Source of the DNA: a virus
Taxonomy: Duplodnaviria; Caudoviricetes
Length of the DNA: 30,136 nucleotides
Strand: one strand, 5' to 3'
IMG/VR virus record: IMGVR_UViG_3300020045_000321
Coordinates: 1-30,136 of that record
Under the pieces are notes generated by a model. That model did no database searches. It was not told the origin of the DNA and saw nothing but the letters and a program-made list of their open reading frames with translations. Both the position numbers and the translations under genes were made by a program. Positions 1 through 12,913 of the stretch are shown piece by piece. Position 1 is the stretch's first letter. Each line of letters begins with the position of its first letter.

Positions 1-2
1 AT

Positions 3-1130
3 CATGCTGTTAATCCTGACACCATTGAATTATCTTCTGCTGACCTTGCTAACTTGGTGTTCTCGACTCCTCACAAGAATAAGGAATATGTAGCTGGTAT
101 TCTTGAGCAGGTCGATCATAGTGAGGCTAGTGCTAAAACAACCATCCAATTAATCAACTCTATTCGTGAAGGGAAGTTACTTAAGCAGTTGTCGTTGTCG
201 TCGTATGAGGTAGCCGAAGGTCGAATGGAACGTGAGAAATTCCTAGATCAACTACAAAACTATCTTGCTGAGGTAGATAATTATGTTCACGCTGGTAGTG
301 CTGAGTTTGATGATCTTTGTTTCGTTACCTCTGATCTTGATGAGCTTGTTAATTCTGCTGTCACATCCTCCGGGTTGAGATGGAGACTCAACACACTCAA
401 TCAGATGTTAGGCAGTTTACGTAAAGGAGACTTTGGGGTTGTATTTGCGAGGCCTGAGACGGGCAAGACAACTTTCCTAGCCAGTGAGGTCACCTTCATG
501 GCTACGCAGCTTGTAGACCCCTCCAGTGGCCCCATAATGTGGATTAACAATGAGGAGCAAGGTAACAAGGTGATGTTGCGGTGTTATCAGGCAGCATTGG
601 GATTAGATCTTGTTAATCTCTATTCAGACATAGCAAAGAACAGGAGTAAGTATTCAGAGTTAACACATGATAAGATTAAGATCTTTGATAGTGGTGTTGT
701 TCATAAGAAAACTGTGGAGGAACTTTGCAGGAAGTTTAAACCATCCTTGTTGATCTTTGATCAGATTGACAAGATTCAAGGGTTCGTCAATGATCGGGAG
801 GATCTACGCCTAGGAGCTATTTATATCTGGGCACGTGAGTTAGCTAAACAATACTGTCCTGTTATTGGTATCTGTCAAGCTGATGGTACTGGTGAGGGTG
901 TGCGGTGGTTAACCATGAGTCACGTCGCCAACGCCAAGACTGCTAAGCAAGCGGAGGCCGACTGGATTCTTGGTATTGGTAAGGTTAATGATGTTGGTTA
1001 TGATCAACTGCGTTTCCTACACTTATCTAAGAATAAGTTAATGGGTGATGCAGATACTATTGCTGACCAGCGGCATGGTAGACGAGAATGTTTGATAGAT
1101 GCGGGTATTGCCCGATATAAGGATATTTAA
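3..1130 (+). CDS. DnaB-like (SF4) replicative helicase, 5' partial
   Basis: Walker A ARPETGKTTF, NNEE, Walker B-type LIFDQID, ICQA, EADWILG and LSKNK motifs. The frame is open back to position 3, so the true start lies upstream of the window. Confidence 0.92.
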   Translation, partial: HAVNPDTIELSSADLANLVFSTPHKNKEYVAGILEQVDHSEASAKTTIQLINSIREGKLLKQLSLSSYEVAEGRMEREKFLDQLQNYLAEVDNYVHAGSAEFDDLCFVTSDLDELVNSAVTSSGLRWRLNTLNQMLGSLRKGDFGVVFARPETGKTTFLASEVTFMATQLVDPSSGPIMWINNEEQGNKVMLRCYQAALGLDLVNLYSDIAKNRSKYSELTHDKIKIFDSGVVHKKTVEELCRKFKPSLLIFDQIDKIQGFVNDREDLRLGAIYIWARELAKQYCPVIGICQADGTGEGVRWLTMSHVANAKTAKQAEADWILGIGKVNDVGYDQLRFLHLSKNKLMGDADTIADQRHGRRECLIDAGIARYKDI

Positions 1131-1131
1131 T

Positions 1132-1188
1132 ATGACAGCAGAACGTGAAGCAATTGCAGCCGAGGAAGCGCAGACGGTGGAGCCATGA
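1132..1188 (+). CDS. Very short ORF MTAEREAIAAEEAQTVEP, possibly a gene remnant
   Basis: ATG immediately after the helicase stop; its TGA overlaps the ATG of the next ORF (ATGA). Confidence 0.3.
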   Translation: MTAEREAIAAEEAQTVEP

Positions 1189-1466
1189 AGCAACTTTTAC
1201 AAGAGCCTTATGGCTGGATGATTGAGGGCAGTTCAATTGTTTGGAGGTTTGAGTTTGCCGAGCTGGACGCAAAGGCCGAAGCTGCACGATGCGGCGGCAC
1301 TTGCAAGGCTTTCCCGATTTATACCCAGCCAGTCGCTGAGTTGACCAATGAAGAGATTCACATCGCTTGGAGTAGTGTGGATTACACGGTTCCGTACCAG
1401 CAATTCAGGATTGATGTTGCACGCGCTGTACTGGCAGCGCAGAAAGCTAAGTCATGGGTTATTTAA
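1185..1466 (+). CDS. Hypothetical phage protein (93 aa)
   Basis: GGAG upstream of the ATG; EPYGW...PIYTQP...LTNEEI pattern resembles small accessory phage proteins; locally GC-richer than its flanks. Confidence 0.7.
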   Translation: MKQLLQEPYGWMIEGSSIVWRFEFAELDAKAEAARCGGTCKAFPIYTQPVAELTNEEIHIAWSSVDYTVPYQQFRIDVARAVLAAQKAKSWVI

Positions 1467-1615
1467 ATGAGTATGGTTTTCTAAAGAAACCGGAGAAAGA
1501 ACAAGATTATAAACGAGCAATTAATAAACTCTTAGCACAGGGATTTACAGTAGACAACCTACTACGATACTTAACTAAAATCAAGGAAGAGGTAGAAAAT
1601 AAAACACAAACTTAA
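1454..1615 (+). CDS. Hypothetical protein (53 aa, MGYLNEYGFLKKPEKEQ...)
   Basis: Read manually, below the ORF-track cutoff; overlaps the previous stop and fills the gap in a tightly packed operon. Confidence 0.6.
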   Translation: MGYLNEYGFLKKPEKEQDYKRAINKLLAQGFTVDNLLRYLTKIKEEVENKTQT

Positions 1616-1634
1616 AAACAAATGTATTATTTAT

Positions 1635-1808
1635 ATGGTGGTGCGAACAGACTCGACGCTACAAATTCCTCGTGATACCGTGTGCTGCTTATGTAGGACG
1701 TTTGAACGAGCAGAAGAGTTGTGTGGTGAGTATGAGCAAATCTTTTTAGACAAGGGCTGGACTGATCTTACGTTTCATGTGGAGGGGAATATTTATTATG
1801 ACAGTTGA
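1635..1808 (+). CDS. Hypothetical protein (57 aa, MVVRTDSTLQIPRDTVCCLC...)
   Basis: Read manually; fills the operon gap and overlaps the next start. Start codon uncertain. Confidence 0.5.
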   Translation: MVVRTDSTLQIPRDTVCCLCRTFERAEELCGEYEQIFLDKGWTDLTFHVEGNIYYDS

Positions 1809-1965
1809 GGATAAGGCAAAGGAGTATTACCGGAAGCAGATGATCTTGTGGCCTAGGGCTTTGAGTTGGTATGACTTATCTGAAGAAACTAAAACATATT
1901 TTATAGATAGGATACAAACTAGTGAGGACTTTAACGCTCGACACGGAAACGGAGATATACAATAA
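1798..1965 (+). CDS. Hypothetical protein (55 aa, MTVEDKAKEYY...)
   Basis: GGAGGGG Shine-Dalgarno upstream of ATG 1798; WYDLSEETK motif. Confidence 0.6.
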   Translation: MTVEDKAKEYYRKQMILWPRALSWYDLSEETKTYFIDRIQTSEDFNARHGNGDIQ

Positions 1966-3046
1966 TGGCAACCCCTTTGACTCACGTAATAAGCTGGTGT
2001 GTTGGTCATGGAAGCAGGACGATCATGAAGCTAATGCAGCTATGTGGAGCATACCTTCTGCTGTCCAGTCTTGTGTGGATGGTGCTGATATGCTTGTCGG
2101 CTTTAATTTCAAGTTTGATTATCATTGGCTACACAACAACGGGGTAAACCTAGCTGGGAAACGTATATGGGACTGTCAAGCAGCCCACTACATCCTAACT
2201 AGTCAGCTCTGTGTGTTCCCCTCCTTGAATGAGGTCTGTGAGTATTATGGGTTATCACAGAAGCTGGACGTAGTTAAGACAGAGTATTGGGAAAAAGGTA
2301 TCACTACTTCATTGGTGCCACAGGAAATCTTGTTACCTTACGCGGCGTATGATGTGCAGCTAACGTACCGAGTATTCCAACTCCAATGGAAGCAAGCAAC
2401 AGCCGCTCAACGGGCTTTAATCTTGTTGGATGGGCAGGATACCCATGTGTTACGCGAGATGGAATCTAATGGCATCCTGTTCGATGCAGAGCTATGTTTA
2501 CAACGTGAAAAGGAAATAGATGGTAAGATCAAACTTCTTGAAGATCAACTCAAAGCAGTATATCCACAAGTTCCTATTAACTTTGCTAGTAACGATGATC
2601 TGTCTGCCTTTCTATATGGTGGAACAGTTGAAGAGGTTATCAAGGTTCATGACGGCTTTTATAAAACAGGAATTAAAAAAGGACAACCCAAGTTAAAGAA
2701 CACAGTAGTAACTCATCAGTTACCTCAGTTATATAAACCAGTCAAAGGAAGTGAGCTAAAGAAGGCTGGCTATTACGCTACGAATGAGCCTACGTTACGT
2801 CAACTCAAGGGTAACATGGCTACGGTTAATCTTATTCTTGGGCTTGCTAAGCTTGCTAAGATCAATGGTACTTATTATAAAGGGCTTCCTAAGTTGAATA
2901 AAGAAATGCACTGGCCGGAGGGCATACTCCATAGTAACTTCAATAACACACAAACCATTACAGGACGACTCAGTTCCAATAAACCCAACCAACAAAACTT
3001 TAGTGGAGATATTCTTGATATCTTTGGTAGTTGTTATACCACATGA
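1922..3046 (+). CDS. polA: Family A DNA polymerase, N-terminal part (3'-5' exonuclease plus thumb)
   Basis: ExoI LDTETE, ExoII GFNFKFD, ExoIII YAAYDV, MESNGILFD, INFAS and TITGRLSSNKPNQQN; stops just before motif A. Confidence 0.92.
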   Translation: MRTLTLDTETEIYNNGNPFDSRNKLVCWSWKQDDHEANAAMWSIPSAVQSCVDGADMLVGFNFKFDYHWLHNNGVNLAGKRIWDCQAAHYILTSQLCVFPSLNEVCEYYGLSQKLDVVKTEYWEKGITTSLVPQEILLPYAAYDVQLTYRVFQLQWKQATAAQRALILLDGQDTHVLREMESNGILFDAELCLQREKEIDGKIKLLEDQLKAVYPQVPINFASNDDLSAFLYGGTVEEVIKVHDGFYKTGIKKGQPKLKNTVVTHQLPQLYKPVKGSELKKAGYYATNEPTLRQLKGNMATVNLILGLAKLAKINGTYYKGLPKLNKEMHWPEGILHSNFNNTQTITGRLSSNKPNQQNFSGDILDIFGSCYTT

Positions 3047-3237
3047 ATAAAGAGATGTTAAAACTAGATTACACCGACGCCGTTACAAATCTATTGATGT
3101 TAGTCAACCAAAACAGTTCACGCAGTATTGCCCTGGACTTATGGAAGTACTATCCAATGGAAACACAACAGCTCTGTTCTGCCTTGGTACAGACACAGCA
3201 TACCAAGAAGGTTGCTAAACTTTTAATGAAAGATTGA
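3043..3237 (+). CDS. Hypothetical protein (64 aa) between the two polymerase genes
   Basis: ATG 3043 overlaps the upstream TGA (ATGA); its stop is 1 nt before the ATG of the polymerase C-terminal gene. Confidence 0.65.
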   Translation: MNKEMLKLDYTDAVTNLLMLVNQNSSRSIALDLWKYYPMETQQLCSALVQTQHTKKVAKLLMKD

Positions 3238-3238
3238 T

Positions 3239-3669
3239 ATGCTTATATCGGCAGATGCAAGTCAGTTGGAGTGGCGTACTGCCGTAGAACTTAGTAATGA
3301 CCAAGTAGGACTTAGTGAAATATTAGATCATGCAGACACACACTCACTCAACCAAAAGGCGTTTGAACTCCCATCACGACTCATCGCAAAGATCTATTTG
3401 TTTAGAACGATCTTTCGTGGCTCTGGGTGGGCCTTTGCCAACGATGCCGATTTCTCCCACGTATCATCATCCAGTAAATATTGGGATAGGGTCAACGAGA
3501 AGTTCTATTCTAAATATGCCGGTCTGGATGCCCAACATAAGCGATGGGCACAGCAGGTGGTTTCCGGGCAACCTATCGTGGGTCCACTAGGTCGATCATG
3601 GAAGCTCAAGATGCAGGACAAACGTGGTGAGCTGGTTATCCCTTGGACTACCCTCACAAACTTCCCCGT
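3239..3669 (+). CDS. polA: Family A DNA polymerase, C-terminal part, exon 1
   Basis: Motif A ADASQLEWR, DTHSLN and motif B RLIAKIYLFRTIF; ends in TNFPV at the intron 5' splice site. Confidence 0.92.
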
Positions 3670-3765
3670 TAAATGTAGCGGCTTTTATCAGTAATGGTAA
3701 TCGAATAACTCTGTGAACTCAGGGGAAATCTAGAACAGATAATCCTGAACTAAGGCAAATAGTAG

Positions 3766-3794
3766 TTGACAGTACAAGGAAAGTATGCTATACT
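3766..3794 (+). promoter_or_regulatory. Sigma70-type promoter inside the intron, upstream of the HNH gene
   Basis: TTGACA (3766-71), 17-nt spacer, TATACT (3789-94) with extended -10 TG; AAGGA RBS before ATG 3825. Confidence 0.85.
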
Positions 3795-3824
3795 AGAGAT
3801 ATAGACTTTAAAAAGGAAATATCT

Positions 3825-4394
3825 ATGGTTTGGAATAAAACATCATCAGAACTAGTGGATCAGATTATGACTACTATGAGGCAAGATTATTCTCTGCGTT
3901 ATGCAGATATTGCCAAGCAGTTTGCTGTATCTGAATGTCTAGTATCTAGTTTAGCACGTAAGCATTTAACACCCATAGAAAGAGCAGAAAGATATTCAGC
4001 AATCAATCATTATGCTAAGTTGAAATCCAATCCCATGACTGGTAAAACCCGAGAATTACATCACAACTCTAAAGTTGAGGTGCTTGTTGTTGGGTATAAA
4101 ACAGAGTGGGCTCCACAATGGTGGACTGGACTTATGCCTAAAGGTAATAGGGTAATGATACACCAACGCGTATGGTGTGAGTCTAATAACAAGACTGAAG
4201 TACCCAAAGGATTTGTCATTCATCATATAGATGAGGATAAATTTAATAATGATGCTGATAATCTAATCTGTATATCTAGACGTGAACATGCACAAATTCA
4301 TTGTGTGTCAAATCTATTAGCAAAGCGCAACGACTATCCGAAAGGAGTAGAGGGCAGCGCCCTCGAAGCGCAGAGGCACCTTATGGGTGTATGA
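3825..4394 (+). CDS. Intron-encoded HNH homing endonuclease with N-terminal HTH-like region
   Basis: HQRVW...VIHHIDEDKFNNDADNL...HAQIH HNH signature; HTH-like LRYADIAKQFAVSECLVS. Confidence 0.92.
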   Translation: MVWNKTSSELVDQIMTTMRQDYSLRYADIAKQFAVSECLVSSLARKHLTPIERAERYSAINHYAKLKSNPMTGKTRELHHNSKVEVLVVGYKTEWAPQWWTGLMPKGNRVMIHQRVWCESNNKTEVPKGFVIHHIDEDKFNNDADNLICISRREHAQIHCVSNLLAKRNDYPKGVEGSALEAQRHLMGV

Positions 4395-4459
4395 TATAGT
4401 CTGGCCTATATGGGGACATATAGAGGGTATATGGAAGCGGTATACTCGTAACATAAGCG

Positions 4460-4739
4460 ACAGGGCACCGGGGCAGACGTAATGAAGATTGCACGGATTG
4501 TTTTCTACAAACGAATTAAAGCTAGAGGCATTCCATGTAAGTTCATTACCACCGTCCACGACAGTATTGTAGTTGATGCAGAGTCACAATACCTAGAGGA
4601 GATTACCGCGCTATTTCATGAGGCGTTCGCCGCGATCATCCCTAATATTAAGACTATATTTGGGTATAATTGGAAGACTCCTCTTGAGTGTGAGGTTAAA
4701 TTCGGAAATGATTTTATGAATATGGAGAAATGTAAATGA
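4460..4739 (+). CDS. polA: Family A DNA polymerase, C-terminal part, exon 2
   Basis: QGTGADVMK, motif C TVHDSIV and PLECEVKFG; the spliced product of 3239-4739 is 236 aa. Confidence 0.92.
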
Positions 4740-4879
4740 GTTGGGGTGCCCTACCTTGGTGGGTATATCAACTGGAGTCTGAGCACTATGAGGCTAGGCT
4801 ATCTGGTTGTATGGAAGATGAGTGGATTGTTCGTCATGCACGAAGTTTTCCACAATATCTGAACTTATTTTATAAATAA
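4736..4879 (+). CDS. Hypothetical protein (47 aa, MSWGALPWWVYQLE...)
   Basis: Read manually; ATGA overlap with the polymerase stop and GGAG upstream. Confidence 0.6.
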   Translation: MSWGALPWWVYQLESEHYEARLSGCMEDEWIVRHARSFPQYLNLFYK

Positions 4880-4882
4880 GTG

Positions 4883-4912
4883 TTGACAAAGTGTATCTGA
4901 GTATGATATACT
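4883..4912 (+). promoter_or_regulatory. Sigma70-type promoter upstream of the putative SSB gene
   Basis: TTGACA (4883-88), 18-nt spacer, TATACT (4907-12) with extended -10 TG; AT-rich sequence upstream. Confidence 0.8.
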
Positions 4913-4916
4913 AAAG

Positions 4917-4945
4917 GTATGTACTCAATATTATGTAGTACATAC
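4917..4945. repeat. Perfect 9-bp inverted repeat GTATGTACT-N11-AGTACATAC
   Basis: Seen directly; overlaps the predicted transcription start of the 4883 promoter. Confidence 0.8.
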
Positions 4946-4969
4946 ATATTAAATAATTAAGGAATTAAA

Positions 4970-5524
4970 TTGCAAATTCAAATTTTGTCGGTTAGTATCA
5001 CAACAGTCCCTACAGCCAAGGGTTCGTATCAAGTAGCTGACTTGGCATTTAAGAATCTTACCTATCAAGGTAAAGTTGAAGGCAAGAAAGTAATGAGCTT
5101 TGGTGCTGCTAAAGCTTCGTTTGAAGCATTGGCTATTGCTCAACCGGGTGAGGTATATGACGTTACCGTTGTTAAGAATGACAAGGGGTTCAATGACTGG
5201 ACAGCGATGGTTAAAGGAGTAGCAGGTGCAGCACAACCGGCCCAAGCAAAAACATCAGGAGGAGTTGTGGCGACAGCAGCGACAGCACAACCCTCCCGTA
5301 GTACCTACGAGACCCCCGAGGAGCGTGCAAAGAAGCAGGTCTACATTATCCGTCAAAGTAGTTTTAGTACTGCTGTCACTGGTCTTAGTGCTGGTGCTAA
5401 GACACCTGTGAAGTTCGAGGATGCATTAGCATACGCCAAGAACATCGAGAAGTATATCCTTGATATGGACTTGGGCGGAGCGGGCTTCCAAGATATTCCA
5501 GATTTCCCTGCTGAAGCTGAATAA
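4970..5524 (+). CDS. Putative single-stranded DNA-binding protein
   Basis: AAGGA RBS with TTG start; beta-rich N-terminus, Ala-rich linker, acidic/aromatic tail FQDIPDFPAEAE; located between polymerase and exonuclease with its own promoter. Confidence 0.65.
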   Translation: MQIQILSVSITTVPTAKGSYQVADLAFKNLTYQGKVEGKKVMSFGAAKASFEALAIAQPGEVYDVTVVKNDKGFNDWTAMVKGVAGAAQPAQAKTSGGVVATAATAQPSRSTYETPEERAKKQVYIIRQSSFSTAVTGLSAGAKTPVKFEDALAYAKNIEKYILDMDLGGAGFQDIPDFPAEAE

Positions 5525-5753
5525 ACTACTAAGAGATCTTATCTTACTTCTTCTGTTGGTATCTTTCACTACCTTTGCGTATAAGCTCGGGTATGTAGTC
5601 GCCAAGGAAGAAGTTAAGGCATCCGAGCAACATGATCTTTGTTTTGATACTGCAAAGGAAAATGCTTGGATTGCCTATAAAGACGGTCAGATCAGATGTT
5701 TCCGTGAACACAAAGAGTATCCACATCGGTCACGAGGGAGTTTTATAGAATGA
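5460..5753 (+). CDS. Hypothetical membrane-anchored protein (true start probably later)
   Basis: Hydrophobic LILLLLLVSFTTFAY segment; stop overlaps the next ATG. Confidence 0.55.
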   Translation: MIWTWAERASKIFQISLLKLNKLLRDLILLLLLVSFTTFAYKLGYVVAKEEVKASEQHDLCFDTAKENAWIAYKDGQIRCFREHKEYPHRSRGSFIE

Positions 5754-5944
5754 AAACTAAGAAGATTCATGTAGGTTGGTTTAGTATTAGTAAAAATGGA
5801 GTGTCCTCTTATCATTCCGGTATTGAACAAGATCCAGTTTATATAGCAAAAACTCTTACAGAGCATGTTACTGGTGGACCATATACAGTAGTAAAAGCTT
5901 TTATGGAAGTAGAACTCAAAGGTAAAAATGATTGCCCTAATTGA
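5750..5944 (+). CDS. Hypothetical protein (64 aa)
   Basis: GAGGGAG RBS, ATGA overlap, operon packing. Confidence 0.65.
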   Translation: MKTKKIHVGWFSISKNGVSSYHSGIEQDPVYIAKTLTEHVTGGPYTVVKAFMEVELKGKNDCPN

Positions 5945-6443
5945 TGGGGACATCATCTTAGGAAAGGTATGGTTAGATGGAAATGGATATCCAAAAGTTT
6001 CTATAGGGTCATGTAAAGATAACTATGTTCATAGAATAGTGGCTGCTCTAATGTTAGGTAGAGAGTTACAAGGGACAGAATGTGTCCACCACATCAACTA
6101 TAACAAGCAAGATAATCGTAGGAGTAATCTGTATGTGTGTAAAGATGATGCAGAGCATCGTCAAATACATGCTATACAGGATATTCTAAATGATGGGTAC
6201 GACCCTAAACTATATCATTATTGTACCTACCATAAACAATATGAGTTAAAGACAGAATTTAGTACTAGACCAAGTAGTTGGTGTGGATTACATAATATGT
6301 GTCGAAAAGCAACCAATGAGTATAGAAAACTCAAAGGTTATGATCACAGTTTATTTGATTGGAAGGCAGCTATGAACCAACAGTTTCGTAGAGCATTGAA
6401 AAAGGGAATCACTAGTCCCCTTAAGGAGGGCCGTTGTCTATGA
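5928..6443 (+). CDS. HNH homing endonuclease fused to the first 10 codons of the exonuclease
   Basis: NGYPKV...YVHRIVA...VHHINYNKQDNRRSNL...HRQIH; begins MIALIDGDII, the canonical start of T7 gp6/T5 D15-type exonucleases. Confidence 0.9.
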   Translation: MIALIDGDIILGKVWLDGNGYPKVSIGSCKDNYVHRIVAALMLGRELQGTECVHHINYNKQDNRRSNLYVCKDDAEHRQIHAIQDILNDGYDPKLYHYCTYHKQYELKTEFSTRPSSWCGLHNMCRKATNEYRKLKGYDHSLFDWKAAMNQQFRRALKKGITSPLKEGRCL

Positions 6444-7182
6444 GTTCTTTTAAAGCACTTATAGACGGTTAGGAGACATCATCGCGTACCGTTGTGCTGC
6501 TAGTGCCGAGAACGAGCCCCTAAGCATAGCACAAGAGCGGGCGGATGCTCTTATCGAACGTATCATGTTTGAAACAGGCAGTGGTTCTTGTAGAGTATTC
6601 CTCACAGGCACTGGTAATTTCCGATATGATATTAATCCAGAATACAAAGCTAATAGAAAAGATAAACCCAAACCGCGCTGGCTACAGGAGCTGCGTGAGC
6701 ACCTAGTCCTCGGTTGGGGGGCTACTATTAGCGAAGGCAACGAAGCAGATGACGAACTTGGTATTGCACAAGCCACCTCTACGGAGAACACAGTCATCGC
6801 AAGTATCGACAAAGATCTCTTGATGATCCCCGGTAATCATTATAATTTTGTGAAGAATGAACACAAAACTGTGAGTTACCTAGAAGGACAGAAGATGTTT
6901 TATTACCAACTTATTATGGGAGATACCTCAGATAATATCTTTGGGTTTGATGGTAAAGCACGGAGCAAAGTTCCGAAGTTTCTTGAACCCCGGATTGATT
7001 ATCTCTTATCTCTAGATAATGAGTATGACATGTTTGAATATACCCTTGACTTATATGGTGGTGCGGGTGATGAGCACGTACTAGCAAACTATATGATGAA
7101 TGCACATTGCCTCTATATATGGCAGAAACAAAACGACCAATGGCGACCTCCAACAAAACCCCTCGATTTCGTTCAGGACTAG
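6440..7182 (+). CDS. 5'-3' exonuclease (T7 gp6/FEN-like) with a discontinuous frame at the 5' end
   Basis: The frame from 6472 reads GDIIAYRCAA...NFRYDINPEYKANR...EADDELG...SIDKDL...GDTSDNIFG. AAGGAGG plus ATG 6440 encodes MSSFKALIDG-stop in another frame. The ATG 6565 product would lack the first acidic motif. Confidence 0.85.
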
Positions 7183-7514
7183 AGAAAAAGGCATGGGCTA
7201 TGATGCCCAAGTCAACTACATATGAGACCGACAAGATTAAATATCTTGTTGAGCATCTCTACCATCCCGATTTTACAATTGCTCCGAACACCTACATCGA
7301 AACTAAAGGACGCTTCCTTAGTGCGGATAGGGCGAAGCACTTACATATTCGGGAACAACATCCAGAAGTGAAGGTCTACTTCCTATTTGGTAATGCAGAA
7401 AATAAGCTCACCAAGTCCAGCAAGACTAGCTACGCAGATTGGTGTATTAAATATGGTTTTGAATATGCTGATTTTTACAAAGAAGGTATTCCCAAAGAAT
7501 GGTTTAATAAATGA
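7140..7514 (+). CDS. T7 endonuclease I-like Holliday junction resolvase
   Basis: FRSGLE, YHPDF, IETKGRF, K(T/S)YADWC and IPKEW motifs; likely start ATG 7140. Confidence 0.92.
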   Translation: MATSNKTPRFRSGLEKKAWAMMPKSTTYETDKIKYLVEHLYHPDFTIAPNTYIETKGRFLSADRAKHLHIREQHPEVKVYFLFGNAENKLTKSSKTSYADWCIKYGFEYADFYKEGIPKEWFNK

Positions 7515-8278
7515 GACATTTAATTTTGCCAGACGTTCAAGCCAAGCCCGGCTCCGACTTCTCATTCCTTAATAAGATAGGGCAGTACATCGTAGAGAAA
7601 AAACCTGAGGTCATTATATGTATAGGAGACTTCGCAGATATGCCCTCCCTATCATCCTATGACGTAGGTAAGAAGTCTTTTGAGGGTAGGCGGTACGTCA
7701 AGGACATACAAGCCGCTCACGAGGCTATGGAAGCCCTCCTAGCACCACTCAAAGCGTTCAACATCAAAGCAATTCGTAATAAGGAGAAACAGTACCACCC
7801 CCGTATGGTCATGACGCTTGGAAACCACGAACATCGTATTGTTAGAGCAGTAGACAATGACCCTAAGTTAGATGGTGTCCTGTCTATAGATGATCTCAAA
7901 TACAAAGAGTTCGGTTGGGAAGTTCATAACTTTCTTGACGTTGTTATCATTGATGGTGTGGCATACAGCCATTATTTTGTTACCGGTGTGGCTGGTCGTC
8001 CGGCTAGTAGCGCCAGCGCACAACTAAATAAGAAACACCAATCTTGTATTGCAGGTCACCAGCAGGGACTTCAGATTGCTACAGCCAATAGGGCTGATGG
8101 TAGTTTGATTACTTCGGTAATTGCTGGAAGTTGCTACCAGCATTTGGAACATTATATGGGTCCACAGGGAAATAAACATTGGAGGGGGTTTTTGGTCTGC
8201 CATGATGTACAACCAAACGGCGAATTTGATCTGATGCCTGTGAGTTTAGACTATGTAACAAAAAAATATGCAGACTAA
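7511..8278 (+). CDS. Calcineurin-like metallophosphoesterase
   Basis: PDVQ, IGDFAD, LGNHE, YSHY and AGHQQ motifs. Confidence 0.88.
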   Translation: MRHLILPDVQAKPGSDFSFLNKIGQYIVEKKPEVIICIGDFADMPSLSSYDVGKKSFEGRRYVKDIQAAHEAMEALLAPLKAFNIKAIRNKEKQYHPRMVMTLGNHEHRIVRAVDNDPKLDGVLSIDDLKYKEFGWEVHNFLDVVIIDGVAYSHYFVTGVAGRPASSASAQLNKKHQSCIAGHQQGLQIATANRADGSLITSVIAGSCYQHLEHYMGPQGNKHWRGFLVCHDVQPNGEFDLMPVSLDYVTKKYAD

Positions 8279-8726
8279 GTATTGTCCACAATGTCAAGAG
8301 ATAAAAAGTACAGTATTATTTTATAGAAATTCTTCAAATAAGCAAAATTGCAGTGCTTATTGTAAAGTTTGTCAAAACAAGCGTACAACTCTTTATGTGA
8401 ACGCTAATAAAGAAAAAATGAGTCCTCATTTACGCAGATACTCTCTTAAAAAGCGTTATGGTTTGTCTATTGAAGATTATAATACTATGTTAGAAAAACA
8501 AAATGGGGTTTGTGCTATTTGTAAAAAGCCTAATAGTACTAATAAGCATTTTGCTGTAGATCATTGCCATAGTACAAAGAAAATTAGAGGTATTTTATGT
8601 GATAATTGTAATAAAGGTTTAGGGGTTTATCATGATGATACTTCTATATTACAAAACGCTATTTTATATTTGGAAAACTCAAAAAATGTTTGGTCATCTT
8701 TATACACAAAAACCCGGTTCACTTGA
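8268..8726 (+). CDS. Endonuclease VII-family HNH nuclease (putative free-standing homing endonuclease)
   Basis: N-terminal CPQC...CKVC, RYGLSIEDY, QNGVCAIC...VDHCH...IRGILCDNCNKGLG; strongly AT-rich. Confidence 0.9.
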   Translation: MQTKYCPQCQEIKSTVLFYRNSSNKQNCSAYCKVCQNKRTTLYVNANKEKMSPHLRRYSLKKRYGLSIEDYNTMLEKQNGVCAICKKPNSTNKHFAVDHCHSTKKIRGILCDNCNKGLGVYHDDTSILQNAILYLENSKNVWSSLYTKTRFT

Positions 8727-9039
8727 CGCCGCCTTTGAACGCGGTGCTATCCAGTCAGGTCTAGTTGACCCGACAGCAGCAACCTTCCCAGAGAATCGTT
8801 TGACAGGTATCCTACCCCCTATTGAATGGGGCCAACCCCCACCAACAGCCAATCAAGAGCCCGAGGTGTGGTGGTTAGTACAGAAGGATATGCTTAAACG
8901 CAACTCCTTTGGTGTTGATAAGTATGGTATACCACTTCAACCCCACAACGGACGTGATGCCCTCAAGGATGCTTATGAAGAGGCTCTTGATCTTGTGGTC
9001 TACCTCCGACAAGCTATCTATGAACGGGATTCAAAATAA
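8686..9039 (+). CDS. Conserved phage protein, possibly an all-alpha NTP pyrophosphatase (MazG-like fold)
   Basis: GVDKYG and DAYEEALDLVVYL acidic helix; likely start ATG 8686. Confidence 0.6.
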   Translation: MFGHLYTQKPGSLDAAFERGAIQSGLVDPTAATFPENRLTGILPPIEWGQPPPTANQEPEVWWLVQKDMLKRNSFGVDKYGIPLQPHNGRDALKDAYEEALDLVVYLRQAIYERDSK

Positions 9040-9659
9040 TGCCAATAGTTAAATTAGAATGGGCAACACCCAATATCGAGGAAGTAATCTTAAAGTGCTG
9101 TCGTCCACAAGAGACTAGCCCAAGCAAAGATCCTGTTAAGCTCTTGAACTATCTTATTAAGCACCATCATTGGAGTCCATTTGAAATGGTTTCTATTTGT
9201 ATGGAAATTAATACTACACGAGATATTGCTCGACAGATCCTACGTCATCGTAGCTTTTCCTTCCAAGAATTCAGTCAGCGATATGCTAAGGTAACTGAGT
9301 TCACAGAAAGTGAAGTCCGCCTGCAGGACACAAAGAATCGACAGAACTCGTTGCCTAACGAAGACAAAACTCTAGAAGCATGGTGGAGTTATGCACAAGA
9401 TGTTTTACTAGATCATACAACAGAAGTTTATGAGCAGGCTTTGAAGAAGGGTATTGCAAAAGAAGTAGCTCGTAAGATTCTCCCCGAGGGATTAACATCT
9501 TCTCGTATGTTTATGACAGGAACCTTACGTAGCTGGCTCCATTATATCTCTATTCGTATGGATGCAGCTACACAGAAAGAGCATCGACAAGTAGCTGAAC
9601 AGTGTGCCTTGATCTTGACTACTCTTTGTCCTACTATTATGGAAGCTTTCTATGCCTGA
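9039..9659 (+). CDS. thyX: Flavin-dependent thymidylate synthase
   Basis: HWSPFE, signature RHRSFSFQEFSQRY, KEVARKILP and TQKEHR. Confidence 0.95.
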   Translation: MPIVKLEWATPNIEEVILKCCRPQETSPSKDPVKLLNYLIKHHHWSPFEMVSICMEINTTRDIARQILRHRSFSFQEFSQRYAKVTEFTESEVRLQDTKNRQNSLPNEDKTLEAWWSYAQDVLLDHTTEVYEQALKKGIAKEVARKILPEGLTSSRMFMTGTLRSWLHYISIRMDAATQKEHRQVAEQCALILTTLCPTIMEAFYA

Positions 9660-9825
9660 CATTTCTATGTGTCCCGGTGGTAGTTGTTCAGAACGGACAC
9701 GATGCTATCGTGCTACAGCTATCCCAAGTGAACTTCAGGTTTACTTTACCTTTTTACCATTATCACCAGATGACTCTTGTGATTACTATATCCCATTAGA
9801 AAAGAATACAGATGAAAATAAATGA
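9652..9825 (+). CDS. Small Cys-rich protein (57 aa, MPDISMCPGGSC...CYR...CDYY)
   Basis: Read manually; overlaps both neighbours, four spaced Cys residues; more plausible than the track ORF 9602-9799. Confidence 0.7.
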   Translation: MPDISMCPGGSCSERTRCYRATAIPSELQVYFTFLPLSPDDSCDYYIPLEKNTDENK

Positions 9826-10147
9826 TTATCAAAAACAAGCCCTCTCCTTCCGTCTTCCTAGTGCCGATCATATGTATGCTCTACTTAACCTCACCAGCGA
9901 AGTGGGTGAGCTTAATGGTCACATTGCAAAAGGAATTCGAGATGAAATTCCACAACAAACTATCGGTGTGAATATCGCAAAAGAACTTGGTGATATCCTG
10001 TGGTGTATTGCTGCGGTATGTGCTGATATGGGTATTACCTTAGAGGACGTAGCTCAAGGTAACCTAGACAAGCTGACCAAACGTAAGGCAACAGGAACTA
10101 TCAAAGGGTCGGGTGACGACAGAGAGTCGATTGTAAATGCAGTCTGA
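9812..10147 (+). CDS. mazG: MazG-like nucleotide pyrophosphohydrolase
   Basis: YQKQA, LTSEVGEL, KELGDILW, NLDKL and GSGDDR motifs. Confidence 0.88.
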   Translation: MKINDYQKQALSFRLPSADHMYALLNLTSEVGELNGHIAKGIRDEIPQQTIGVNIAKELGDILWCIAAVCADMGITLEDVAQGNLDKLTKRKATGTIKGSGDDRESIVNAV

Positions 10148-10295
10148 TATTGAAGAACTCAAACTCTTGATCATTCATAATTTAGATATTCAGGAATTCT
10201 TGGATATCTTGGATATTGATCTTGTTGAACTCGTAGAAATCCTAGAGGAACAGATTGAAAACAAGTACACACAACTCCACGCTGCCGTTCGCTAA
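10137..10295 (+). CDS. Small acidic helical protein (52 aa, MQSDIEELKLLII...)
   Basis: Read manually; overlaps the upstream stop; D/E- and L/I-rich. Confidence 0.7.
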   Translation: MQSDIEELKLLIIHNLDIQEFLDILDIDLVELVEILEEQIENKYTQLHAAVR

Positions 10296-10446
10296 GCAGT
10301 CTTATAAGAAACCATATCAAATTCGTATACACGAAGAAAAGGAGGCCAATCGTGACATTGCCTATGCTCTCACCAGTGGTGAAACCGAAACGGATCGACA
10401 AGTGCCCTACATGCAACTCGTGGATGAAACGCCAAAACTTACGTGA
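10255..10446 (+). CDS. Hypothetical protein (63 aa)
   Basis: GAGG upstream of a TTG start, but large overlaps with both neighbours. Confidence 0.4.
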   Translation: MKTSTHNSTLPFAKQSYKKPYQIRIHEEKEANRDIAYALTSGETETDRQVPYMQLVDETPKLT

Positions 10447-10513
10447 ACAGCCTCCCATCTACTTATGTATGGCTTGTGAACACAAAAAACGGAATCAATT
10501 GAATGACAAATAA
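10352..10513 (+). CDS. Small zinc-ribbon protein (CPTC...CMAC)
   Basis: Read manually; AAGGAGG upstream of GTG 10352 (in-frame ATG 10364); overlaps the nrdJ start. Confidence 0.65.
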   Translation: MTLPMLSPVVKPKRIDKCPTCNSWMKRQNLREQPPIYLCMACEHKKRNQLNDK

Positions 10514-12185
10514 ACAAGATTTTAAAAACGCATTTGCACAAAATATTTTCAACGCTAAGTATGCAAAATTCCCCGGAGAGACTTGGGCACAACGTGCTCA
10601 TGACATTGTAGAAGATGTTTGTGGTACTCGTTGGGGTACTGCTAGCACCCTTATGAGCACCTCTGATCTACGACAACTTGAAGAGTATATCAAAGATCAG
10701 AAGTTCTTCCCCGGTGGTCGTTATATTTGGTACAGTGGTCGTGGACACAGCTTCTTTAATAACTGTTTTCTTCTTCGAGCAGAAGAGGATACACGAGAAG
10801 AGTGGGCCAACCTCATGCAACGTTCTATTTCCTGTTTGATGACAGGTGGTGGTATTGGTATTGACTATTCTCGTTTGCGTGCTAAGGGGCGGCCTCTTAG
10901 TCGTACAGGTGGAACTGCCTCTGGTCCACTTCCTCTTATGCAAATGATTAATGAAGCAGGGCGCGGGGTAATGCAAGGAGGATCACGTCGATCTGCAATC
11001 TATGCTAGTCTCAATTGGCAACATGACGATATTGATCAGTTCCTTAAAAGCAAGAATTGGGACGAGCTGACCAAAGAACAGAAGGCTATCAACTTCAACT
11101 ATCCAGCACCATTGGATATGACCAACATCAGCGTCAACTACGACGACGCGAGTTTGGGTTGTTACACCAAGGGGTTGGGTGGGTCGATCACAGATAGCGA
11201 GCTGGCTACCAATCCTGTTTTTATGGAGAACTGTCGACAAGCACTCATGACCGGTGAACCCGGCTTCTCCTTTAACTTCGGAAGTAAACAGAATGAAACC
11301 CTACGAAATGCCTGTACTGAGGTTACATCAGAAGATGATAGTGACGTTTGTAATCTTGGCTCAATTAATATGGGTAATATATCATCTTTGGAGGAGTTCA
11401 AATCTGTTGTTTCCTTGGCTTCTAAGTTCCTCGTCTGTGGAACACTACGAGCCGATCTGCCATACGAAAAAGTCTATAAAGTTCGGGAAAAGAACCGTCG
11501 TCTTGGACTTGGACTTATGGGTATCCATGAGTGGCTCCTCCAACGAGGTGAAAAATACGAGGTAACAAATGAACTACATCAATGGCTCCAAGTCTATCGA
11601 GCTGAGTCCGAGTCAGCAGCTAATGAGCACTGTGATAGATTCTTTATCTCTCGTCCAGTCGCCTATCGTGCAATCGCTCCCACAGGAAGCATTGGAATCC
11701 TTGCGGGAACAACAACTGGCATTGAACCGTTGTTTGCAGTCGCATATAAGCGTCGCTTCCTTACAGAAGGGACTAAATGGAAATATCAATACGTGGTGGA
11801 TGGAACAGCACAGTCACTTATTGAGAAGTATTCTGCTAACCCCGATTCCATCGAAACTGCCCTAGACCTGAGTACCGATTATGAACGACGACTGGCGTTT
11901 CAGGCAGGAATCCAAGACTACGTGGACATGAGTATTTCTAGTACTATTAATCTTCCTGCGTGGGGTAGTGCTACTAACAACGATTCGACAGTTAAAGGCT
12001 TTACAGAAGTATTAGCAAAATATGCTCCTCGACTGCGTGGCTTTACCTGCTACCCAGACAGTAGCCGTGGAGGCCAACCACTGACATCGGTGCCTTATAA
12101 AGAAGCACTTGCTCACAAGGATACTGTCTACGACGAGACGATTGATATTTGTGATCTGACTGGTGGGGGCACGTGTGGGTCTTAG
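10503..12185 (+). CDS. nrdJ: Class II (B12-dependent) ribonucleotide reductase
   Basis: PGGR, NNCF, GGGIGIDYS, QGGSRRSA, TGEPG, NACTE, CNLGSIN, RRLGLG, IAPTGSI, GIEP, ISSTIN and a C-terminal Cys pair; no nrdB nearby. Confidence 0.88.
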   Translation: MTNKQDFKNAFAQNIFNAKYAKFPGETWAQRAHDIVEDVCGTRWGTASTLMSTSDLRQLEEYIKDQKFFPGGRYIWYSGRGHSFFNNCFLLRAEEDTREEWANLMQRSISCLMTGGGIGIDYSRLRAKGRPLSRTGGTASGPLPLMQMINEAGRGVMQGGSRRSAIYASLNWQHDDIDQFLKSKNWDELTKEQKAINFNYPAPLDMTNISVNYDDASLGCYTKGLGGSITDSELATNPVFMENCRQALMTGEPGFSFNFGSKQNETLRNACTEVTSEDDSDVCNLGSINMGNISSLEEFKSVVSLASKFLVCGTLRADLPYEKVYKVREKNRRLGLGLMGIHEWLLQRGEKYEVTNELHQWLQVYRAESESAANEHCDRFFISRPVAYRAIAPTGSIGILAGTTTGIEPLFAVAYKRRFLTEGTKWKYQYVVDGTAQSLIEKYSANPDSIETALDLSTDYERRLAFQAGIQDYVDMSISSTINLPAWGSATNNDSTVKGFTEVLAKYAPRLRGFTCYPDSSRGGQPLTSVPYKEALAHKDTVYDETIDICDLTGGGTCGS

Positions 12186-12327
12186 TATCGGCGTAAGCTT
12201 CATCAATGGCATGATGTTGGGGATTGAGTTCCCTGACAAAGCTACTCTAGTAGAACCGGATGATATTAAGTTCTGTTTTGTACTTGATCTCTTGATCATT
12301 CGTTGTATTTTTATCTGGTCAAAATAA
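12175..12327 (+). CDS. Small hydrophobic hypothetical protein (50 aa)
   Basis: Read manually: GTG start, GLSIGVSFINGMMLGIEF...FVLDLLIIRCIFIWSK; overlaps the nrdJ stop. Confidence 0.6.
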   Translation: MGLSIGVSFINGMMLGIEFPDKATLVEPDDIKFCFVLDLLIIRCIFIWSK

Positions 12328-12456
12328 AGGAGGACTTCTATGGAAGGTGATGGTTATGCTTGAAGGATGGGATGACTAAGTAGCAACCCTTGTTAAGGAG
12401 AATCTAATGTGATTTAAGATCGGTCATCAACACCTTACGTGGAATCCAGAAACAAG

Positions 12457-12493
12457 AAAACCCCAAGGACTCATCATCCAAGGGGTTTTTTTT
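12457..12493 (+). terminator. Intrinsic terminator between the convergent arms, probably bidirectional
   Basis: AAAA-CCCC-aa-GGA-ctcatca-TCC-aa-GGGG-T8; the A-rich 5' flank supplies a U tract on the - strand just after the lysozyme stop. Confidence 0.85.
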
Positions 12494-12498
12494 GGTCT

Positions 12499-12912
12499 CT
12501 ACGATCCGAATTGATCTCGTTCCGAGTTACGTCTTGATGTTATCTCAGGTGGTATATGCCAACGATTGAACTCCAGCATAGCTTTGGTAAATTGTTTGAG
12601 GTTAATAAACTTAAGCATCGTAGACCGCTTAAAAGCATTAACACCAACGTTAAACACAAAACTAACTAAAGCATCATATTGGTTCTGTGTGAGTGGCACC
12701 AACGTCGACGTGTTAATACAAAGTTCGGATGTTTTAATGTCTTTCCTAAGTGCCTCCTCGATTTGTTGGTCCGTCCAAACAAGACCAGCTTTGACTTCCG
12801 GTCCCGTGTGTCCTACGCCAATTGTCCAAATCCCCTTGGTGTCTAGGTAAGCTTTGTTTCGTTTACCCTCACGTAGCGTAAGAATCTTTAAACCGTTATC
12901 TGAAATAAACAT
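12499..12912 (-). CDS. Endolysin, GH24 phage lysozyme
   Basis: E-x8-D-x5-T triad (REGKRNKAYLDTKGIWTIGVGH), QNQYDALVSFVFNVG and RRNSE. Confidence 0.95.
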   Translation of the reverse strand: MFISDNGLKILTLREGKRNKAYLDTKGIWTIGVGHTGPEVKAGLVWTDQQIEEALRKDIKTSELCINTSTLVPLTQNQYDALVSFVFNVGVNAFKRSTMLKFINLKQFTKAMLEFNRWHIPPEITSRRNSERDQFGS

Positions 12913-12913
12913 C

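Follow-up and report, generated by a model that had tools for sequence, protein, structure and literature searches.

A nuclease insertion at the start of a phage exonuclease gene and its candidate five-nucleotide ribosomal hop

Introduction

Very few natural cases of ribosomal bypassing are known, and the one in phage T4 gene 60 depends on many signals. Here we describe a candidate for a minimal system in a stretch of phage DNA of 30,136 nucleotides (nt), referred to below as the window (IMG/VR record IMGVR_UViG_3300020045_000321), a 30-kb contig that makes up its entire assembly. The single 5'-3' exonuclease gene among 27 scanned open reading frames (ORFs) of the window carries at its start an insert that holds an HNH_3 nuclease ORF and a second copy of the exonuclease N-terminus, and between this second copy and the exonuclease body lies a 5-nt gap that begins with UAG. 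Judging from its relatives, the junction is real and conserved and is very likely recoded, and a programmed hop of peptidyl-tRNA over the gap, pushed by a refolding hairpin, is in our estimation the probable means by which the enzyme would be made whole.

The nearest described system is the T4 gene 39/mobA/gene 60 element, in which, as here, a homing-type nuclease sits in an essential-type gene and the element supplies a recoded copy of the sequence that it displaces (bioRxiv 10.1101/2022.08.31.505936; 10.1101/2024.12.09.627546). Also shared are a Gly or Asp take-off codon followed by a stop, mostly UAG, a landing codon matched to it at least in part, and a gap that lies at a conserved acidic motif and survives the swap or loss of the nuclease (bioRxiv 10.1101/2022.08.31.505936), and in T4 too a 5' stem-loop has been proposed as the motor (bioRxiv 10.1101/2024.12.09.627546; PMC5009743). 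In other respects the two differ. The target here is a PF02739 exonuclease of the FEN family, whereas that of T4 is the large subunit of topoisomerase II; the nuclease is a 171-residue HNH_3 protein or an endonuclease VII, as opposed to MobA of 269-279 residues or its replacement; and the gap is 5-6 nt, compared with 20-50 nt in the T4 family and 50 nt in gene 60 itself. The T4 family has a mini-Shine-Dalgarno (SD) sequence 5-7 nt before landing, but none is present here, where an AGA triplet lies 6 nt before landing, and there is likewise no take-off/A-site stem-loop of the kind whose 5' side holds the take-off codon in the T4 family. At most loci 7-11 residues precede take-off, with no long nascent-peptide signal, in place of the T4 family's extension of ~45 residues. 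The hairpin here lies directly against the take-off codon and in most cases masks the AUG, and gap-free sister elements exist. By these comparisons the window cassette falls outside the T4 MobA family, though it would work like gene 60.

Among other comparators, synthetic stop-hops in E. coli (Weiss et al. 1987) used matched codons around a stop and gave +5/+6 movement, and a 2016 review held that no natural in-frame stop-hop was known (PMC5009743); those were reporter constructs, whereas the pattern described here occurs in nature, is conserved and goes together with a hairpin and a mobile nuclease. The 10-nt (and 7-nt) bypass of the Streptomyces phage Hau3 terminase resembles ours in its short gap within a phage gene and in its proposed signals, a 5' stem-loop and an SD, and the 10-nt bypass was seen by mass spectrometry in E. 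coli once UUA had been changed to a stop; it differs in its rare UUA trigger and its proposed regulatory role, and no nuclease is named in the text consulted (PMC10732093). The byps of Magnusiomyces mitochondria (81 inserts) are also mobile inserts skipped by ribosomes, with loose matching of take-off and landing tolerated, but they are 27-55 nt long, depend on an unused sense codon and are passed by the mitochondrial ribosome (PMC5009743). Finally, a hairpin that refolds beside the E site favours a forward shift where a stop is decoded slowly, although in engineered constructs, by +1 only and without a hop (PMC6321510). The element itself was not found in the literature searched, closed journals and preprint supplements being outside its coverage.

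The junction and the need for the supplied N-terminus

The start MIALIDGDII, which is likely the native exonuclease start of the host, runs in frame into the HNH ORF, whose HNH_3 match scores 35.2 bits against a curated cut-off of 24.8 and whose product is likely a homing endonuclease. In the closest relative, locus L001 (protein 97% identical, body DNA ~96%), the gene begins in the same way but is unbroken and without a nuclease. At the other end of the insert, ATG 6440 overlaps the HNH stop codon and opens ten codons that end in GGT, after which come TAG, GA and GAC, with the predicted landing codon GGA (6472-6474) overlapping the stop (6470-6472). The body that follows is complete as a 5'-3' exonuclease (phrog_107 E 9e-54; PF02739). 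Its frame is open for just 21 nt 5' of 6475, up to TAA 6451; that interval contains no ATG, GTG or TTG in the body frame, and the earliest standard start is at 6565. A sequence-only reading of the window had described this arrangement, including the native-like start, the AAGGAGG before the second start, the startless body frame and a 12-nt repeat 526 nt apart, and every coordinate holds; the repeat copies are 11/12 alike. As 19 families of 9-20-nt direct repeats lie within 1.6 kb, the 12-nt repeat is by itself ordinary, and it was rejected as stand-alone evidence.

The insert also occurs, ~90% identical, in two public runs of one study, X1 and X2. The X1 contig differs from window positions 6370-6501 at 3 letters and the X2 contig from 6370-6515 at 4, in both cases with 0 gaps. 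Judging from contig overlap, positions 6378-6471 appear unchanged, against some 39 differences in 428 places of the HNH part (chance ~1e-4). Contigs of 48 and 574 nt in X1 differ here by exactly 526 nt (depth 217 vs 127), and X1 has two variants at 7196-7300, which fits a mixture of occupied and empty strains.

What the second copy supplies is the first Asp of a D-x-D motif; this Asp lines up with the catalytic Asp in the LLVDG of Taq 5' nuclease. In a 120-homolog alignment the first Asp is kept in 105 of the 107 rows with a residue there and the second in 109 of 109; 16 of the 120 homologs fail a test for the N-terminal D-x-D motif. Intact homologs in this alignment have no insertion within D-x-D, so that an exact skip is needed, and P0070, alone among the rows in having residues added between the two Asp, is a gene call that reads through the body frame of the cassette. 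A model of the empty-allele protein, with a predicted local distance difference test score of 96, matches T5 FEN (Foldseek T5 D15 E 5e-10), ExoIX and T4 RNase H. In it, residues 2-6 form the first strand and a helix starts at residue 7, and the junction falls at this strand-to-helix turn. A start at 6565 would lose the first strand, both Asp and the first helix. The FEN-family fold and the acidic motifs (N-terminal Asp, EADD, DKD, GDxxDN) are present, and of these the N-terminal Asp precedes the gap.

Gene finders call gapped exonucleases from behind the gap or through the cassette (P0070, P0116, P0020 and others), and P0116 may be another gap variant; the contigs of P0020 and of the HNH protein P0124 have the same length, 6646. 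The cassette explains N-terminally truncated gene calls in this exonuclease family, P0070 at least being a cassette read-through.

A family of gap junctions behind two nuclease families

We find 27 distinct gap junctions, the window's included, behind HNH_3 and endonuclease VII genes. In all 27 a stop (26 UAG, 1 UGA) directly follows the take-off codon, and the gap is 5 or 6 nt: 23 distinct junctions have 5 nt at a Gly, Ala or Ser codon (26 loci), two have 5 nt at Asp (L012 and L217, the latter reading GAT TAG AC with a matching landing codon), and two are 6-nt in-frame forms, CTT TAG CTT (L018) and GGT TGA GGC (L200). Ten codons precede take-off in the window and 7-11 in the 20 loci listed.

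The HNH protein has 11 close homologs with 44-64% identity, most with an exonuclease stub as their start, and more in the 50% library; H54, H55, N67 and H77 are invariant in the 12 rows. A search with an HNH alignment gave 5 viral and 6 metagenome loci. The 5-nt gap lies at the same codon as in the window in L010, L013, L015, L016, L017 and L020, one codon further on in L012, and two codons beyond that in L018; L011 has an intact, gap-free second start, and L019 ends ahead of the junction. L014, like L008 and L009, was dropped as a generic HNH. A DNA pattern search returned 11 stretches, 9 of them real, L027 and L030 being chance matches, and placed the cassette behind endonuclease VII genes as well (PF02945 in 7/7). 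With a pattern blind to everything after GAC, 66 stretches were found, and all 15 that are exonuclease-linked read codon-TAG-2 nt-GAY. With one blind to the 5' arm of the hairpin described below, 12 stretches were found, of which the 5 exonuclease-linked all have GTCTATGA upstream and none is a new locus. An endonuclease VII alignment search, blind to DNA, yielded 42 loci, 31 exonuclease-linked, with 18 gapped (15 distinct) and 13 gap-free (10 distinct). Matches without an exonuclease behind them were dropped throughout (51/66, 7/12 and 11/42, respectively).

The motif first proposed, GGN-TAG-GA-GAC, is too narrow, given the Ala, Ser, Asp and Leu take-offs, the 6-nt gaps, the single UGA and the endonuclease VII carriers. 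Alignment of relatives with and without the HNH, which the sequence-only reading had proposed as a check, supports that reading: relatives keep the 5 nt, and empty alleles read D-x-D unbroken.

Among alleles found through the exonuclease itself, few have a gap: 1 in 80 (the best 80 of at least 500 confirmed) and 0 in 7. A tblastn search of 50,697 phage records with the HNH returned 23 matches, all weak and partial and none covering 80%; exonuclease matches among cultured phage records were all <60%, the N-termini of those lying outside the comparison; and prokaryote genomes gave 0 matches to the cassette pattern and 1 weak match to the HNH alignment.

The hairpin and the codon pair

The most discriminating feature, absent from the sequence-only reading, is a predicted hairpin in which 6436-6444 pairs with 6458-6466, the 5' arm covering the AUG and the HNH stop and the 3' arm stopping one base before the take-off codon. 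The segment 6429-6469 folds at -14.1 kcal/mol (z -3.5). For the 41 nt ending at the take-off codon the energy is -13.9 in 18 cassettes (weakest -10.6) vs -3.7 in 86 intact alleles (strongest -10.0), and the ATA/GTA-GAC that forms the 3' arm is present in 18/18 cassettes, 12 of them found without it in the pattern, vs 8/86 intact alleles. Among the 31 loci found by nuclease protein alone the hairpin separates the two classes, all 18 gapped loci lying at or below -7.9 and all 13 gap-free loci at or above -7.7 (distinct loci, p 2e-5). In a set of 22 loci 96% of cells are paired, compared with 15-57% in slid controls, and double-sided changes occur at 2 of 8 pairs, in 5 cells (0/500 shuffles). An unrelated 11-12-base-pair stem in L012 and L217 is located past the AUG but, here too, ends at the shifted take-off codon; this connects the stem with the hop rather than with initiation alone.

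The codons on either side of the gap co-vary. The take-off and landing pairs are GGU-GGU (9), GGU-GGA (5), GGG-GGA (1), GCU-GCU (2), GCC-GCU (1), UCC-GCU (2), UCU-GCU (1), UCC-GCC (1) and GCU-GUU (1), the remaining junctions having GAU-GAC, GAU-GGU, CUU-CUU and GGU-GGC. In 23 distinct junctions the middle bases are G at both codons in 15 and C at take-off with a base other than G at landing in 8, with no crossing between G and C (Fisher 2e-6, kinship ignored). The first two bases match in 21 of the 27, and 16 of those satisfy a rule of identity or G/A, U/C wobble.

Selection on the body and loss of the nuclease

The gapped bodies (19 in the main set and 7 further) are full length or run off their contig with acidic motifs kept, apart from the EADD variant, which is missing in L041 and L211, and the gap is kept among bodies that are 27-88% identical (20 compared). 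Ratios of non-synonymous to synonymous substitution (dN/dS) are 0.06 for the window and L001, 0.15 for L015/L016, both gapped, 0.16 for L021/L022 and 0.30 for L070/L093; from these ratios, the exonuclease body is under purifying selection. Relaxed selection on the body had been put forward at the outset as something that would count against the bypass reading, and these ratios point the other way.

Gapped hosts are scattered among empty alleles in a FastTree phylogeny of 69 bodies, from which L018 and near-duplicate empties were left out, and presence at the one site is patchy, with cognate empty alleles (L001 is empty, and X1 has both). In some loci the first copy shares the reading frame of the nuclease, in L013, L031 and L041 it meets a stop immediately, and in L035 it is out of frame; it decays to IEGD in L013 and INGD in L019, and within 628-900 nt it was not found in L023, L028, L070, L086 and L093. 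L028 keeps a nuclease remnant only and L086 no nuclease, and both keep the gap. In loci that lack a first copy, nothing but the second start with its gap provides the first Asp; this speaks against removal of the entire insert by splicing and also against complementation by a nuclease stub. At L013 (1965-2397) the HNH is frameshifted and the first copy runs into a stop after IEGD, while gap and hairpin are intact.

Gap-free sisters and the purpose of the gap

An N-terminus is re-supplied without a gap in 13 of the 31 endonuclease VII loci and in the HNH locus L011. Since such gap-free sisters exist, a spare start suffices to keep the gene whole, and the gap needs a further reason. The proposal that the cassette keeps its host gene functional without splicing accordingly stands for the second start, which rescues the gene, but not for the hop itself. 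GTG precedes the first Asp in 11 of the 13 gap-free loci vs 2 of 86 intact alleles; the GTG-bearing gap-free second starts behind endonuclease VII are those of L195-L198, L201, L210, L218, L219, L229, L231 and L232, and L001, which also bears GTG, may be a resistant or cured allele. It is likely, from this comparison, that the gap serves target-site immunity against the nuclease of the element itself, with recoding and the 5-nt insert as two routes by which the second copy would become uncuttable; in a secondhand account of T4, the bypass insert blocks nicking by MobA. Free-standing homing nucleases of fungal mitochondria re-supply the displaced end of a gene and keep it whole without splicing, and in this they resemble the gap-free sisters, though without the recoding.

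Proposed mechanism and alternatives

In the mechanism that we favour, ribosomes finishing the HNH ORF would open the stem and restart at 6440; that the second start is opened in this way, by translational coupling, is probable because the hairpin covers the AUG. After ten codons UAG would enter the A site, with peptidyl-tRNA-Gly paused on GGU, and the short peptide and slow termination would loosen P-site pairing. The stem would then zip up behind the ribosome, invade the E-site codon and draw the mRNA back, such that tRNA-Gly re-pairs at 6472-6474, five bases on, and decoding resumes at 6475 to give the full enzyme. The sequence-only reading had proposed a mobile HNH with a mini-bypass cassette, and the retention of the 5 nt in relatives, the selection on the body and the co-variation of the codons support it.

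Several observations weigh against this hop. The pair GGU/GGA of the window, which 5 of the 27 junctions have, does not fit G/A or U/C wobble, unlike all T4-family cases, and six junctions match at two positions only (four UCY-GCY, GCU-GUU in L010 and GAU-GGU in L012). The landing codon equals the first-copy codon in L015, L017, L021, L031, L035 and L041, though not in the window, L010 and L024; it may thus be host-derived, in which case the co-variation would be partly inherited, with take-off adjusted to landing. The junctions are also related, so that the p-values overstate. The core stem pairs are mostly invariant, with double-sided changes at 0 of 8 pairs in a first 18-row alignment, for many rows of which GTCTATGA was part of the search pattern, and the stem of L018 is weak (z +0.7, centroid only) in a gene with a second nuclease insertion. 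Selection on the bodies could date in part from empty ancestors. Finally, on 70S ribosomes the hairpin stimulated the +1 shift only without RF2 (PMC6321510).

Beside the hop, the least unlikely of what remain unlikely explanations is that ribosomes at the pause do something other than hop, slipping by -1 or +2 or, in the 6-nt forms, reading through, which would add one or two residues between the Asp. An A-site stop and a 5' hairpin favour such shifts too, and the body frame has no stop within the gap, where it reads R-R-L-G ahead of Asp. A slip has no possible re-pairing at -1 (CGG) or +2 (UUA), however, and would create, at a strand-to-helix turn, the very D-x-D insertion that intact homologs lack, nor does it predict co-variation of the flanking codons. 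Three further schemes were rejected: an 8-nt hop from the first Asp to the second has no pause codon following and would delete an invariant Asp; a -1 shift at UUU-AAA runs into TAA 6451; and reassignment of UAG would leave the frame unrestored in a window where TAG ends 2 of 33 ORFs, this one included. No tRNA with an expanded anticodon was found in the window, a partial contig.

A shade less probable is loss of the 5 nt at the RNA level, whether by a forward jump of RNA polymerase at the hairpin or by cutting and joining of the transcript. Hairpins can push RNA polymerase forward, but here the flanking repeats are merely 1-3 nt, the stop stands in codon register in 27 of 27 junctions, third-position changes track tRNA wobble, and Rfam has no match at the site.

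We regard it as very unlikely that the protein is made in pieces, the 10-residue peptide or the HNH stub complementing a body re-initiated at a non-AUG codon behind AGGAG/GGUGA. TAGGAG and TAGGTGA do look SD-like, nuclease-split genes whose products assemble in trans are known (Aeh1 nrdA, from a secondhand account), and the L018 exonuclease and the window DNA polymerase are split further down. Against this, the downstream piece has no in-frame start of its own between TAA 6451 and 6565; codons after the gap vary freely among hydrophobic residues, while the resume Asp is conserved through synonymous changes; the Ala/Ser junctions (TAGCTGA) do not look SD-like; and many loci lack the first copy or carry a degenerate one.

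Highly improbable, in turn, is a dead exonuclease whose gap hitch-hikes with a spreading element. The rarity of gapped alleles would suit it, and a host FEN might substitute for the enzyme, but the bodies are full length with catalytic motifs, dN/dS is low in the gapped pair L015/L016, the gap outlasts loss of the nuclease, and the 94 nt around the cassette appear unchanged where the HNH differs by ~9%. More improbable still is removal of the whole 526-nt insert, by splicing of RNA or excision from DNA between the 12-nt repeats, with use of the first copy. The form in X1 that is shorter by exactly 526 nt (library type unrecorded) is what this would predict, but the two X1 variants at 7196-7300 are as in a strain mix and X2 has the long form only; the ORF fills the insert, where a ribozyme core cannot fit, and an Rfam scan of 1-13000 matched only 4211-4423, with nothing at the insert and no group I catalytic core (P3-P7); and the gap is kept in loci where the first copy is missing, while others (L013, L019) show it decaying. 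An assembly or sequencing error, raised as an alternative by the sequence-only reading, is next to negligible as a general explanation, since the junction has equal length in the independent X1 and X2 contigs and 26 other distinct junctions carry the gap.

On balance we lean towards a more general proposal, namely that a self-contained module of ~45 nt (hairpin, take-off codon, stop and 2-3 nt) would make bacterial ribosomes hop efficiently without a nascent-peptide signal and would work with different codons, in different host genes and behind unrelated nuclease families, acting as a 'ribosomal micro-intron' that immunises the target inside an invariant catalytic motif and ties expression of the host gene to translation of the nuclease. 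If true, the module would be the first widespread class of natural stop-hop, supplying what the 2016 review called unknown, and the 5-nt hop would isolate the '5' stem-loop as motor' in a minimal cassette with a naturally occurring set of variants (Gly, Ala, Ser, Asp and Leu take-offs, UAG and UGA, 5 and 6 nt, compensatory stems and gap-free sisters). It would also be a further route, besides introns, inteins and split proteins, by which homing nucleases inhabit essential motifs.

Features of the locus and other elements of the window

The coordinates of the locus are collected in Table 1.

Table 1. Features of the split exonuclease locus, in window positions.
Feature	Positions	Strand	Basis or remark
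First exonuclease N-terminus copy, 10 codons	5928..5957	+	Now opens the HNH ORF; a stub of this kind opens most HNH homologs
HNH_3 endonuclease ORF, 171 residues	5928..6443	+	PF13392 E 9.5e-9; last codons hold the SD and the 5' hairpin arm
12-nt repeat, left copy (duplicated target region)	5946..5957	+	X1 long/short contig pair
526-nt insert	5958..6483	+	Ends ambiguous inside the 12-nt repeat; 574- vs 48-nt X1 contigs; L001 alignment
Shine-Dalgarno AAGGAGG of the second start	6423..6429	+	Nearly invariant in 18 cassettes, for some of which GGAGG belonged to the search pattern
Predicted hairpin (5' arm 6436-6444, 3' arm 6458-6466)	6436..6466	+	Folding, pair changes, tracks the gap
Second, element-supplied N-terminus MSSFKALIDG, 10 codons	6440..6469	+	Includes the first active-site Asp
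Predicted take-off codon GGU (Gly)	6467..6469	+	Co-varies with the landing codon
5-nt coding gap, UAG + GA	6470..6474	+	NNN-TAG-NN-GAY in 15/15 exonuclease-linked gap-blind matches
12-nt repeat, right copy (landing codon, resume codon, two more)	6472..6483	+	Repeat comparison
Exonuclease body, 235 residues, T5-FEN/T4 RNase H/ExoIX fold	6475..7182	+	Resume codon GAC 6475-6477

The + strand of the window codes for a helicase, a family-A polymerase, the exonuclease, endonuclease I, ThyX and ribonucleotide reductase, with structural genes on the - strand. A 64-codon ORF without a family at 5750-5944 (+) is missing there in L001 and the X2 allele. In the L018 exonuclease, a second nuclease-like ORF splits the gene in the middle, before the DKD motif, at about 1400-1750.

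The DNA polymerase A gene of the window likely contains a group I intron at 3670-4459 (+), with an HNH ORF at 3825-4394; exon 1 ends in U, the intron ends in G and exon 2 resumes a polymerase motif, and the Rfam Intron_gpI match (E 0.003) is under the gathering score. The same gene is split again between 1922-3046 and 3239, with a 64-codon ORF without a Pfam family between (3043-3239, +). A free-standing endonuclease VII ORF at 8268-8726 (+) overlaps both of its neighbours and shows by eye no duplicated start or gap, and at 12440-12500 a terminator-like hairpin with U-runs lies, again by eye, between converging gene blocks.

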